Below are positions 7,535-28,714 of a stretch of 64,000 nt of DNA, in pieces. A program made the translations under genes and the position numbers. The stretch covers positions 2,592,001-2,656,000 of the forward strand of contig CM000154.2 in the NCBI GenBank assembly GCA_000004695.1, written 5' to 3'. The notes beneath the pieces were generated by a model. The model worked only from the letters and a program-made list of their open reading frames with translations. It was not told where the DNA came from and made no database searches. The stretch comes from Dictyostelium discoideum. Its lineage: Eukaryota. The first letter of the stretch is position 1. Every line of letters begins with the position of its first letter.

Positions 7535-8671
7535 ATAAATAAATAAATAAAAAAAAAAAATTTTATTTATCAATTTAAAAAAAAAAAAAAAAAAAAAAAA
7601 AAAATTTAGAAAAAAAAGCAAATAATTAAATGAGAAAAAAAAAAAAAACGATAATAAAATTATAAAAAAAAAACGATAATTAAATTATAAAAAAAGTAAA
7701 TAATAAAATTAAAAAAAAATGAAATAATAATAAAATGAGAAAAACCGATAATTTTTTTTATTTGGTAAATATTAATCAAAATCATATTTTATTGTTGTTT
7801 TAGTTTTTTTTTAAAGAATAAAATACCTGTTAAAATGAAATAGAAAAATTAGTAATCAATTTATATGTATTTTTTTTTAGTTTTTTTTTAAAAAAAACAC
7901 CATTTTATTGTTTTGGATCAGAGTTTTTGGCTTAATTAAAAATTAAATCTTATCTTGTCAATCACAGTCGTGTCGGACGGGGAAAGAAATCATCATCTAA
8001 ACAATAAAATAGTTTCTTTTTTAAAAAGTGTTTGAAACTTACAAGAAAAAGCAAAAGAAAGGACCAAGAATTGAAAGAACACCTCAAAGATAATAAAAGA
8101 AACTGAAAAAAAGACTCAAAGTAACCTAAATAAATCTAGAAAATTAATAAACAAAATTATATTAATATATTACTTTTATATTTTTTTAAATAAACAACCC
8201 AGTTAAATAATATAATAATGGGTATAAAATGTATTTATTAATGTTGTATGGTCAGAAGCAAAACTGGCGTGTCTTGTAAATCCGAATCATCATTAAGATT
8301 GCAGACTGGGGCGGTTGTCAATCATCATTCCAAAAACAAAAAAAATAAATATACACATAAATAATAATACTATTTATAACTTACAATTTGTTGTTAGTTG
8401 TGAATGAAATATTTTTTTTTTTTTTTTTTCTTTTTGTTGAAAGGAAAAAAAAAAAAAAAAAACTTTGAAAAAAAAAAAAATAAAAAAAAAAAGTAAAAAA
8501 TAAAAAAAAAAAAAATCACGAAAAAAGAACGTTATTCACGCATATTGTTTTTTTTTTTTTATTTTAATTTTTTTAATTTTTTTTATTTTTATTATTACTT
8601 TTTTTTTTTACTAAAAATAAATTTATTTTTATTTTTATCTATTTTTATTTTTATTTCTATTTTTTTACAAT

Positions 8672-11600
8672 ATGATTAATAACGAGTACAATGAAAAAAA
8701 TGAAAACCTTTTTTGGAAGGTATTTCATAATAAATATATTTTCAAAAATATAATTATTCAAATGGAGGAAGAAATCATTGAATATGAAGATGTCAATAAA
8801 TACTATATGGGAAATAGAATAAAATTTAAAGATATTACATCATTAGAATGGATTGTTGAAAGAATACAAAAAACAAAACAAATATTACATGATAAACTTA
8901 TTAGTGATCAAGAAATTAATATTACAATTAAATCAATTGATTTATTAATTAAAAAATTTGAAAATGAAAATAAAAAAGAAAATGAAAATAATAATAATAA
9001 TAATAATAATAATAATAATAATAATAATAATAATAATAATAATAATAATAATAATAATAATAATAATAATAATAATAATAATCATAATAATAATAATAAT
9101 AATAATAATAATAAATTTAATGATATAAATATAATAGAGTTATTATTTAAAAAAAGAGAAAAAGAAATTATTCATTTAATAGATCCAGTTTATTTTTCAA
9201 TTAAATATAATAAACCTAAACTATTAAAATTATTTTTAAATGAATTCAAATATCCAATTTTACCATCAACTTTTGAATTTTCATTTAAAAATTCAAATCT
9301 TGAAATCATAAAAATTATATTAAATGAAAAAATAACAACTCTTAATAATGATTTAAAATCAGTAATATTAAAATCAATTTTTTTAAATCCTAATAGTTCA
9401 ACTATAATACCTTTTATTTTAAATGATTTAATTTTTTTTAAATTTCAAAATAATAATAATAATAATAATAATAATAATAATAATAATAATAATAATAATA
9501 ATAATAATAATAATAATAATAATAATAATAATAATAATAATAATAATAATAATAATAAAAATAAAAAAAATAATAATAATAAAAATAATAATAATAATTC
9601 AAAAATTAAAGAAATTAAATTAATTAAAATTAAATTTAATGATTTATTTAAAATTGAATCAATAGAATTAAAATATAAAATGTTAAATAATAATTTAGTT
9701 GAAATACCAGATGAACAATCAATACTTGATGATAATGAAATATTAAAAGTTTTTAAAAATAATGATAGAGAAGGTTTAATATTTTATTTAAGTGTAATTT
9801 ATAAATTATGTCATACAAAATTAATGTTTACAGCTAAATCAATTGAAAAACAGCAAGATGAATTGAATGAATTATCAACTCAACAATTAATGAAATTATT
9901 ATTAATTGAAACAAAATCTGAATTATTATATTTCAATTATTTATTAGAGTATGATGATTTAATTGATGGTGTGGTTGATAGTGATTTAATAGTTTATCAA
10001 TATACTATAACGGTATTTAGTGTTAAAGGATTACAATACCTCTTGAAAAAGTATAACAATATTCATAGTAATTTCTTTAAAGATTCACCAAGAAGATCAT
10101 TTACAGATTATAAAAATTCAAGTGAATATATATTAAGAAATCAAAATAGGTTAATTGAATTTCTCAGATTTTATTACTCAAAGAAATCTTTAATCACTTC
10201 AAAATTAATTAAAGATTGGAAAAGTTTAACCGAATTTTTCATCATGAATTGTGATTTAAATATATTGACAATCATTTTCAAAGAGATTGAAAATTATCCA
10301 ATTAAATTCTTTCTTAGTACAAGTTGTAGAGAGATGAATGATTTTAAAAGACATCAATGGTATATTGATAATGTATTACGTTCAATGTTAGAAACACCAA
10401 TTCAATTTAGATACTTTAATAGAATTCTATATAAATTAAAAACCGAGCAAGATGTTGACTACATTTTAAATAATTATGATTTCTATCGGTATGAATTGGA
10501 TACTTTAACATTTTATTCATTTTTAGATCAATTAGATTTAGCAATTTATTTCGAATCGAAAGCAATTCAATTAAATCTTAAAGATTTACTATTTGATAGA
10601 AATAAAATTTATTTTCAATCTTTTATAAATTCTTTGTCAATTGGTGATTTAGAAACTTTTAAAAAAATTTCATTATTAAATTTAAAATTTAATTTTATAA
10701 ATACACCAATACCAATAACATCATCACTAATAATTGAAAGTTCAAAATTAAAAAAACAACAAGATAAAGAATTAGAACTTGAAAAACAACAAAAATTAAT
10801 TTCATCTTTTTTTAATTCATCAACATCTTATTCATTTAAAAAGGATAATTTATTTTTACCAAAATTAGAAAATTTTAAAAATGAATCAATAATTAATACA
10901 TTTTCATTTTTAACAAACGAAAATAATTATCAAATTTTATCAAATCGTGGTTTTAATGAATTAGTTTATAATTTATTTAAAAGATTTCAAACAACAACAA
11001 ATGAAATTAAAAATTTAAATTTAAATTTTAATCATGATCCATATGGTTCATTATTATTTTCAATTAATTTAATAATTAATGAAGATAATTTAATTGATTC
11101 AAATTTTATATTAAACCAATTAAATATAAATCTATTTAAAGAAGAAGGAAGAGAAGATGGTGATAGTGATGGTAATATAAAATTTAAATTTATAAAAGAT
11201 GAAGAAAATCAAAAGGACAATAGTCCAGAATACATACCACTAATTAATTATTCATTCTTTAATGATGGCGATAGTGGTGATCAAGGTGATGGTTATAGTG
11301 AAATTGAAAAAAGAGTAACAAATGGAAGATCAATTAAACAAATTTATAATTACTCTGTTGATCAAGTTTATTCATTCATTGAATTGATAATAATTAAATT
11401 TCAAAATCAATTAAAATCATTATTATCAAAGAGGATTTATTACACTTTTTTCAATCATTTATATAATTTATATTTACAAATTTATGGTTTACAATTAAAA
11501 GATATTGAAAGAATTGATAAATTATTCTTTGATAATAATATTAAAATCTTTATTGATCTTTATAAAACCGTTTATTATTTTCATACAAAGTCATTTAAAC

Positions 11601-27700: not shown

Positions 27701-28714
27701 TTATTATTATTNNNNNNNNNNNNNNNNNNNNNNNNNNNNNNNNNNNNNNNNNNNNNNNNNNNNNNNNNNNNNNNNNNNNNNNNNNNNNNNNNNNNNNNNN
27801 NNNNNNNNNNNATTTTGAAGATTATCACATAATTGATAAAGTGATTTTAAATAAAATATTAAATCTTGAATTGATAATGATTTAAATGTTGTATTGTTAT
27901 TTTCAAATTCTGAAAATAATGTAATTTTATTTGTTTTCTCTACTAATCCTAATTCTATTAATCTAATTTGAAATTCTCTATAATCTTTTAACCTCATAAA
28001 ATCTTTAAACTTTATTAAATAAAGTGAAGATGATAATGATTTACTTGTTGTTGTTGTTGTTGTTGTTGTTGTTGTTGTTGTTGTTGTAGTTAATTCTGTT
28101 TGTTTCTTTAATTTTTTATTTATTTCTTTATTAATACTATATTCATTTTCATCTTCATATTCTTCATCTTTTTTTAGTTGATTATTATTATTATTATTAT
28201 TATTATTATTATTATTATTATTTTTATTATATAATTGATTATTTATTATAATATTTAAAAATTGAAATGATAATAATTGATTTTGTTTTATTTTTTTTGT
28301 TGCATATTTTAAAGATTTATTTTTTAATTTTGTATAAATTGGTAATTTTAAATGATTAAAGAAAAGATCAAATGCTAATAAATTTTTAACTTTTATTGAA
28401 GTTGCTATTAAATCTACAATTTCAATATGGTTTCTTTTCTTTTGATATAATAACCTAATTAAATCAATATCTTGACATTCTTGTAAAAACATCTTTATTG
28501 CTCTTTTATCAATTAATAAATACTGATTACTTTGTAATTTATCTTTTAATAATGACCATTGTTTGTGTATAACTAAAAATTCTAATGATTTAATTAATTT
28601 AAATTTTATTCTAAATCCAATATAATCTTTGGAAATTTCATCATTATCAATATGATAAAATATCTTTTTAAATAAATAAATATTCCTAATAACTTTCCAA
28701 AATAAATTCTCCAT
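24735..28714 (-). CDS. Large Asn-rich hypothetical protein, paralogue of the 8672 gene. It has two exons and is interrupted by an N gap at 27712-27810.
   Basis: It starts MENLFWKVIRNIYLFKK... (compare ENLFWKVFHNKYIFKN). The intron at 25528..25615 runs GTATGT...ATAG, is 88 bp, phase 2, and joins '...NQSNF' to 'YDDIIFLSASNKSDV...'. The C-terminus is '...LKSFLKNVLIK'. Low-complexity poly-N, poly-T and His tracts are present. Confidence 0.55.

Follow-up and report, generated by a model that had tools for sequence, protein, structure and literature searches.

An old gene pair and the probable remains of a dead duplicate in a Dictyostelium family of large, predicted helical-repeat proteins

Introduction

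The described systems closest to the locus studied here are the FNIP/FGxxFN leucine-rich repeat (LRR) proteins, which consist of tandem 22-residue repeats (PF05725) and are represented among the Skp1 interactors of Dictyostelium (PMC9485057), the ankyrin-repeat proteins, and duplicative pseudogenes, i.e., DNA-level duplicates residing beside their parent gene. Here, we compare with these systems a locus on chromosome 5 of Dictyostelium discoideum AX4. The window analyzed comprises 64,000 nucleotides (GCA_000004695.1, contig CM000154.2, positions 2,592,001 to 2,656,000 of the forward strand) with about 22% G+C and four 100-N gaps, and coordinates given without further label refer to it. It carries two genes, termed A and B in the following, for large asparagine-rich proteins, and two short pieces, fragments 1 and 2, that resemble parts of A.

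A first-pass annotation had interpreted these four elements as a local, fast-evolving family of giant proteins multiplied by repeated segmental duplication and dispersal of fragments. The two full genes, the internal fragment and the promoter-plus-start copy all proved to be present at or very near the positions assigned there. We consider it likely, as a whole, that A and B are an old and constrained pair, that both short copies descend from one later duplicate that has since died, and that the proteins form a helical-repeat family. The locus is a case of real but ordinary duplication and pseudogene decay.

Results

Structure of genes A and B

The elements of the two full genes are as follows.

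8622..8671, plus strand: proximal promoter/5' leader of gene A, the source for the upstream part of the copy at 14575-14623 (88-91% identical)
8672..12589, plus strand: gene A, one-exon coding sequence in a single open reading frame (ORF), 1305 amino acids (aa)
28714-24735, minus strand: gene B, intact, full protein of 1279 aa
25616..28714, minus strand: exon 1 of gene B, starting with MENLFWKVIRNIYLFKKIF and including a 100-N scaffold gap
25528..25615, minus strand: intron of gene B, 88 nt, GTATGT...ATAG (GT..AG), 11% GC (11.4%)
24735..25527, minus strand: exon 2 of gene B, encoding the C-terminal 264 aa including a split codon and ending ...LKSFLKNVLIK*; the spliced frame is open

The protein encoded by gene A starts with an N-terminal LFWKV..N.Y.F motif, followed by a predicted all-helical body and interrupted by two long poly-Asn tracts (aa ~100-145 and 260-321). 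A mechanical ORF finder splits gene B into three ORFs. The breaks correspond to the scaffold gap and to one intron, and gene B is therefore intact. In a gap-free D. discoideum assembly (L003), the gap at 27712-27811 is represented by 48 bp, with 100% identity on either side. Both D. cf. discoideum and D. dimigraforme have a single intron at this same position that restores the frame, and the stop codon and the C-terminus are conserved in them as well. The orthologues are longer than the AX4 protein (1364 aa in D. cf. discoideum and 1385 aa in D. dimigraforme vs 1279 aa). The annotation of the gap-free assembly contains a 1370-aa model of gene B that extends to 24286 and takes in a fragment of a cup gene described further below; this fusion is probably a prediction artefact.

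Relationship between A and B

BLASTP with SEG masking and composition correction yielded four colinear high-scoring segment pairs between the two proteins, covering aa 11-97 (40% identity, E 5e-9), aa 360-601 (26%, E 5e-10) and, more weakly, aa 645-676 and 942-990 (E 0.007). With homopolymer runs collapsed, the Smith-Waterman score amounted to 638, compared with 167 +/- 18 in 100 composition-preserving shuffles (z = 25). Both proteins contain about 17% Asn and are rich in L, I, K and F; Asn runs of at least five hold 82 and 85 residues in the two. Poly-Asn/Thr tracts are common in Dictyostelium proteins. Here, they sit in alignment gaps and vary between paralogues. As the similarity survives both masking and the shuffle test, it is not confined to the Asn tracts, and relatedness carried by low-complexity sequence, the condition under which the first-pass annotation would have had to be abandoned, was not observed. 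Its view of A and B as diverged but related along their length thus stands. In terms of sequence, A and B are almost certainly true paralogues that diverged anciently and have both stayed intact.

Synteny and selection

In D. dimigraforme, the orthologues of A and B are likewise arranged tail to tail (A-> <-B), with a spacer of 1.6 kb. This arrangement predates the split between D. discoideum and D. dimigraforme. The locus of D. cf. discoideum (L002) is 91-94% identical to the window at the nucleotide level. Orthologues of gene A show 94% aa identity for D. cf. discoideum and 75% for D. dimigraforme, and the ratio of nonsynonymous to synonymous substitution rates (dN/dS) is 0.35-0.37 for gene A and 0.19-0.36 for gene B. 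Between AX4 and D. cf. discoideum, protein identity is 94% for A, 95% for B and 94% for the unrelated neighbour DDB_G0289285. The dN/dS values and the neighbour-like identity argue that A and B are constrained and not unusually fast-evolving, contrary to what had been assumed before; both are under purifying selection and evolve no faster than the neighbouring gene.

All paralogues of the family, including those encoded on other chromosomes, are about equidistant from each other, and A and B thus do not form a recent pair. Together with the synteny in D. dimigraforme, this speaks against repeated segmental duplication at the locus as the origin of the two genes.

The two fragments and a dead copy of gene A

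The two short pieces in the interval between A and B are:

14575-14679, plus strand: fragment 1 (promoter-plus-start copy), MINNEYNEKKENLFWMVFQ*, comprising about 50-60 nt of upstream sequence and codons 1-19 of A; feature boundaries 14575..14683
18882-19102, plus strand: fragment 2 (internal fragment), corresponding to A codons 524-597, with an ORF at 18884-19114

In the self-comparison of the window, fragment 1 matched 8622-8727 with 88% identity over 106 nt and 91% over 86 nt. The tblastn alignment to A is 84% identical over 19 aa, where homology ends and a stop codon follows. Fragment 2 shares 88% of nucleotides and 70% of amino acids with A over 74 of the 1305 codons, its edges are sharp, and the family profile recognizes it with E 2e-18. 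The N-terminal 74 aa of Q54HQ1 (DDB_G0289297) correspond to its translation with 100% identity, and in the AX4 annotation fragment 2 forms exon 1 of that gene. Both pieces therefore duplicate parts of A, the promoter and the first 19 codons in one case and an internal stretch in the other, as had originally been proposed.

Insight into their origin came from D. cf. discoideum, in which the order of genes at the locus is A, a SET gene (744 aa), a DDE_Tnp_4 gene, a third copy termed A', and B. A' (L002 9935-12551) starts near codon 385 of A, does not contain aa 1-384 and requires three reading frames. The DDE_Tnp_4 gene (L002 7934-9249), which encodes a PIF/Harbinger-type transposase, lies directly upstream of A' and has no DNA match in the AX4 window.

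Site patterns were compared over the 219 bp of fragment 2. Nineteen sites set all copies of the discoideum clade apart from D. dimigraforme, and eight group fragment 2 with the A' copy of D. cf. discoideum. No site groups fragment 2 with the A gene of AX4, or A' with the resident A gene of D. cf. discoideum. These patterns place the origin of A' after the split of D. dimigraforme and before that between D. discoideum and D. cf. discoideum. With eight derived sites in common and no conflicting pattern, fragment 2 is very probably a relic of A' and not a separately dispersed copy, as the first-pass annotation would have it.

Fragment 1 is located 4.2 kb upstream of fragment 2 on the same strand and exhibits a similar divergence from A (9-12%). 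One decayed copy can account for both pieces on these grounds, and fragment 1 may well represent the 5' end of the same A' copy, an assignment made with appreciably less assurance than that of fragment 2. Since fragment 1 carries promoter sequence, copying is argued to have occurred at the DNA level and not via RNA. Taken as a set, the two fragments combine DNA homology that includes non-coding flank with an incomplete reading frame; for fragment 2 only, a disabled, more complete orthologous copy is present at the same site in the sister species.

The following course of events is proposed. After D. dimigraforme had split off, A would have been duplicated into the A-B interval, giving rise to A' as a third copy. 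A' would then have died, D. cf. discoideum keeping a 5'-truncated and frameshifted pseudogene beside the DDE_Tnp_4 gene. In D. discoideum, A' would have been reduced to the 219 bp of fragment 2, probably together with fragment 1.

The A-B interval

The interval between the two genes (12590-24734) measures 12.1 kb in AX4 vs 1.6 kb in D. dimigraforme, has a GC content of 28% vs 15-19% in A and B, and contains truncated genes end to end. It is a lineage-specific mosaic of intact and truncated gene pieces. Besides the two fragments, the following features were recognized in the interval and upstream of gene A:

6434-7534: DDB_G0289285, exact AX4 protein match
12715..14548, minus strand: SET/MYND-type gene (Pfam SET), 5'-truncated, outside the family, left edge of the mosaic
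14690-15031, minus strand: YqaJ piece (Pfam profile positions 1-114 of 150), ending exactly where fragment 1 starts
15023-15541, plus strand: deoxynucleoside-kinase (dNK) piece (profile positions 80-165 of 203), head to head against the YqaJ piece
15639-15824: DDB_G0289295, exact AX4 protein match
15950-16345: DDB_G0295813, exact AX4 protein match
19981-20196: SNF2-helicase-like piece, judged so only by eye and not confirmed with Pfam
20450-22759: cupC (calcium up-regulated protein C), intact, exact AX4 match

The window sequence 12676-14543 matches L002 5153-7055 with 91% identity, and the SET gene of D. cf. discoideum (744 aa) continues to L002 7766. The last 365 bp of cupC (20444-20808) are copied at 24280-24644 with 84% identity, right behind the stop codon of gene B. 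Inverted or direct repeats of at least 13 nt outside low-complexity sequence that bound 12.5-24.8 kb or single pieces were not found, and the AX4 interval thus bears no transposon signature. Capture of the fragments by Pack-type or Helitron-like transposons was considered and rejected, as terminal repeats or element termini are lacking.

Over 18.8 kb, a stretch in which both fragments lie, the window and an independent D. discoideum assembly without gaps agree at 100% identity. Elsewhere in the window, 1994-3779 and 3882-5551 form a direct duplication (1.4-1.7 kb, 99.6% identity) that flanks the 100-N gap at 3780-3879 and stems either from tandem duplication in the very recent past or from faulty assembly at the gap. 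Further direct duplications comprise 36630-37435 / 37583-38387 (74%), which flanks the 100-N gap at 37483-37582, and 39935-40460 / 41441-41937 (80%).

Gene models that incorporate fragments

Fragment 2 is part of an annotated gene:

18884-19545: DDB_G0289297 model, 145 aa, fragment 2 joined to a downstream ORF

The predicted intron of this model (19111-19334) is 224 nt long and has a GC content of 32.6% vs 11.4% for the gene B intron. DDB_G0289297 was probably assembled from pseudogene debris. Gene predictors have probably stitched the debris of the interval into small chimeric models, of which DDB_G0289297 is an example. In the annotation of the gap-free assembly (L003), a YqaJ model spans window positions 14336-15099 and contains fragment 1.

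Size and distribution of the family

A profile built from A, B and two relatives (760 profile positions) was run with HMMER against 1.84 billion representative proteins and returned seven matches at E <= 1e-3, all of them from Dictyostelium:

P0001, D. dimigraforme: orthologue of gene A
P0002, D. cf. discoideum: partial copy
P0003 (DDB_G0289297), AX4: 145 aa
DDB_G0274919 (Q86HQ9), AX4: 1149 aa, full-length member
DDB_G0267878 (Q55G02), AX4: 949 aa, full-length member
DICPUDRAFT_98535 and DICPUDRAFT_76800, D. purpureum: two proteins, one of 1050 aa and one of 1178 aa

A wider profile added one D. dimigraforme paralogue (P0013). When A, B and the family profile were used as queries in word-indexed searches, 8000 low-complexity candidates filled the available places, and just P0001, P0002 and P0013 were obtained. 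A search of IMG/VR for relatives in giant viruses yielded no family relative, and a scan of the six-frame translation of the 64-kb window with the family profile recovered only A, B and the internal fragment. Literature searches with known and guessed DDB_G identifiers returned no record.

We read DDB_G0274919 as lying on AX4 chromosome 2 and DDB_G0267878 on chromosome 1. Full-length members number at least four in AX4, on three chromosomes, at least two in D. purpureum and at least three in D. dimigraforme. These counts are lower bounds, because the protein collection includes the AX4 neighbours that were tested but lacks gene A, and the large protein searches returned neither A itself nor the orthologues of gene B. 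The multicopy family is real, but with full-length members elsewhere in the genome it is not local, and at about 1300 aa "giant" overstates the size of its proteins.

Family proteins are 950-1400 aa long. An alignment of eight sequences is colinear end to end and contains about 12 shared motifs, among them R.KFK.I.SL.W.V, SELLYF.YL.EYD, KWY.EN.L, DIDFI and GDI.TLK.ID as well as N.NFN, LF.HLYN.YL, YYLH.KS.KLG.YIL and RLDLLEYL. MAFFT alignments in which gene B was entered as separate pieces scattered those pieces, and the least affected version was used.

Predicted fold

Pfam searches with A, B and all eight members gave nothing above threshold, with a lone Ank_4 match (E 0.038) in one member, and a sequence profile search of the PDB gave no match. 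The family is therefore indeed without a recognised domain. None of the eight members matched an ankyrin-repeat model (33-residue unit, signature TPLH / GH..vV..LL) at its threshold. The family lacks a conserved hydrophobic, membrane-spanning segment, which indicates that the proteins are probably soluble.

The AlphaFold2 (AF2) model of gene B aa 1-301 has a mean predicted local distance difference test (pLDDT) score of 62, and aa 40-120, scoring 80-91, form a run of 9-10-residue helices. For gene A aa 322-1305, mean pLDDT is 62.3 and the predicted template modelling score (pTM) is 0.41, with 64 helices and zero strands; the helical blocks are set apart by stretches that are predicted at very low confidence. 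Foldseek searches against PDB and BFVD returned nothing significant (E > 0.05). When aligned with hhalign to a 4-repeat ankyrin consensus, three C-terminal repeats were in register, but with E 0.097 and a probability of 0.6%. Judging from the models, an all-helical repeat fold is quite likely. Where structural neighbours were obtained, the matching parts resemble helix pairs of a degenerate ankyrin type, although we lean slightly against a fold that is specifically ankyrin-like.

The N-terminal motif and possible function

The family proteins start with a conserved motif of about 18 aa, LF[FW][KR]V..N.[YF][LI]F..I. Motifs of this kind are common at the N-termini of FNIP and ankyrin proteins in Dictyostelium. 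In the one FNIP gene examined, which lies directly beside B and whose AX4 ORF 29152-29811 gave an FNIP match with E 8e-49, related species have a closely similar form of the motif, LFFKVYRN.YL..LIF. Its protein begins with ENLFFKVYRNRYLNYLIF in D. cf. discoideum and with EYLFFKVYRNKYLKDLIF in D. dimigraforme, and B begins with ENLFWKVIRNIYLFKKIF. The FNIP gene of AX4 (29152-29990, minus strand) is itself decayed, with an in-frame stop and about 1 kb including the N-terminus lost compared with L002 17568-19304. FNIP repeats were not found in A, B or the other members.

The likeness of the motif to that of the FNIP neighbour, together with the listing of FNIP-type proteins as Skp1 interactors, provides a lead for an adaptor-type function. 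By analogy with other helical-repeat proteins, the family proteins may be scaffolds or adaptors for protein-protein interactions, in which the N-terminal motif would be a module for docking or targeting; we regard this as possible rather than probable. Identity as F-box proteins was considered and rejected: no F-box was detected among the N-terminal 90-140 aa of six members vs Pfam at E <= 10, and the Skp1 interactome supplement (PMC9485057) does not list the known family identifiers or one guessed identifier for gene A. A more far-reaching idea is that the motif is a hitherto unrecognised, dictyostelid-specific docking module, for example a cryptic, truncated F-box-like helix binding a Skp1/cullin adaptor, that helical-repeat and FNIP proteins are interchangeable ubiquitin-ligase receptors, and that the A-B interval breeds and discards receptor genes, whose debris feeds chimeric ORFs. 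This scenario is unlikely. If the motif were indeed a functional docking module, the family would be linked to the very large FNIP family.

Discussion

The arrangement observed in the A-B interval could in principle be explained by other routes than the decay of a single later duplicate between two old genes. Common descent of A and B might itself be doubted, because both proteins are biased towards the same residues and because low-complexity candidates swamped the word-indexed searches, so that the resemblance would be a by-product of amino-acid composition and Asn tracts. Masked, composition-corrected BLASTP nonetheless remains colinear, composition-preserving shuffles score far lower, and the profile picked just seven proteins among 1.84 billion; a low-complexity artefact is ruled out on these three counts, and the chance that the likeness arose without common descent is practically negligible. 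It is likewise highly improbable that the patchwork with both fragments is a chimera of the draft scaffolds. One would point to the four 100-N gaps in the window and to the nearly identical duplication flanking one of them, but GCA_054883475.1, a chromosome-scale assembly free of gaps, agrees with the window letter for letter over 8884-27711 and 27812-29597, which speaks against an assembly artefact, and the SET gene and A' are found in the same interval of D. cf. discoideum.

Two further explanations accept the sequence as it is and differ in how the pieces arose or what they do. An actively duplicating, fast-evolving local family, as originally envisaged, would supply the pieces through several separate duplications or dispersals within 20 kb. 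The presence of four related pieces over this distance fits such a model, as does the lack of a D. cf. discoideum counterpart for fragment 1, and the partial copy of cupC 3.8 kb from its source indicates that the interval accumulates partial duplicates. It conflicts, however, with the ancient, syntenic state of A and B, whose mutual distance is no smaller than that to paralogues encoded on other chromosomes, with the orthology of fragment 2 to one older copy, with ordinary evolutionary rates and with the lack of additional copies within 64 kb. For A, B and fragment 2, the model is largely refuted, and overall we deem it unlikely. Alternatively, the fragments could function within new chimeric genes, with fragment 2 as the first exon of DDB_G0289297 and fragment 1 as a transplanted promoter for a new transcript. 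Indeed, fragment 2 keeps a 76-codon open frame from its ATG that is followed by a GTAAAT donor, two D. discoideum annotations agree fully on the DDB_G0289297 model, and fragment 1 retains an ATG with its upstream sequence. Against this stand the length and GC content of the predicted intron, which are unlike those of the gene B intron, the position of the orthologous D. cf. discoideum stretch inside a pseudogene in three frames, the end of the fragment 1 ORF after 19 codons, and a literature search that gave no publication or expression record; functional chimeras are thus rather unlikely.

The decay of one duplicate, A', between two old genes of a helical-repeat family consequently remains the preferred explanation, and several points weigh against it. 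Fragment 1 is too short to be placed in a tree and has no counterpart in D. cf. discoideum, so it could be a separate small duplication. The structural models are of low confidence (pLDDT 62, pTM 0.41-0.49) and were calculated from 8-9 sequences, and the ankyrin likeness suffers from the failure of the Pfam ankyrin models and from the very low hhalign probability reported above. The restriction of the family to Dictyostelium comes from a single profile search, which gene A and the B orthologues escaped.

The AX4 annotation treats the known members as unrelated hypothetical proteins. The analysis unites them in what is, according to sequence searches and models, an undescribed and lineage-specific family of large helical-repeat proteins, possibly ankyrin-like, without a Pfam entry and detected in Dictyostelium species only. 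In addition, at least one AX4 gene model, DDB_G0289297, is flagged as probable pseudogene debris, and the fusion of gene B with the cup fragment in the other annotation looks alike. The three species form a dated series with no A', a disabled A' and a shredded A', and provide a compact case of duplicate-gene dismantling, in an interval that shows how intergenic space fills with truncated genes.

How, then, does the locus relate to known systems? Among known proteins, DDB_G0274919, DDB_G0267878, DICPUDRAFT_98535 and DICPUDRAFT_76800 are true members of the family, four hypothetical proteins that share the N-terminal motif and the conserved blocks and are colinear with A and B over their full length. 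They are about 25% identical to A/B and encoded elsewhere, on other chromosomes or scaffolds. The FNIP/FGxxFN LRR proteins, for which structures are available (PMC9525666), resemble the family in being repeat proteins expanded within the lineage and, for the FNIP gene beside B in D. cf. discoideum and D. dimigraforme, in the N-terminal motif. Unlike them, A and B are predicted to be helical and not beta-solenoid LRR proteins, and just the short N-terminal motif is in common. From the ankyrin-repeat proteins (Pfam Ank clan), including the degenerate forms of amoebae and giant viruses, the family differs by the missing TPLH motif, irregular repeat lengths and long disordered Asn/Thr inserts, and most of the 1300 aa carry no ankyrin-like sequence signal. 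A' is like other duplicative pseudogenes a DNA-level duplicate beside its parent, truncated and frameshifted in one species and present as short pieces in another. What sets it apart from the usual case is that its remains in AX4 lie in an unusually dense patchwork of truncated genes and have been absorbed into annotated gene models.

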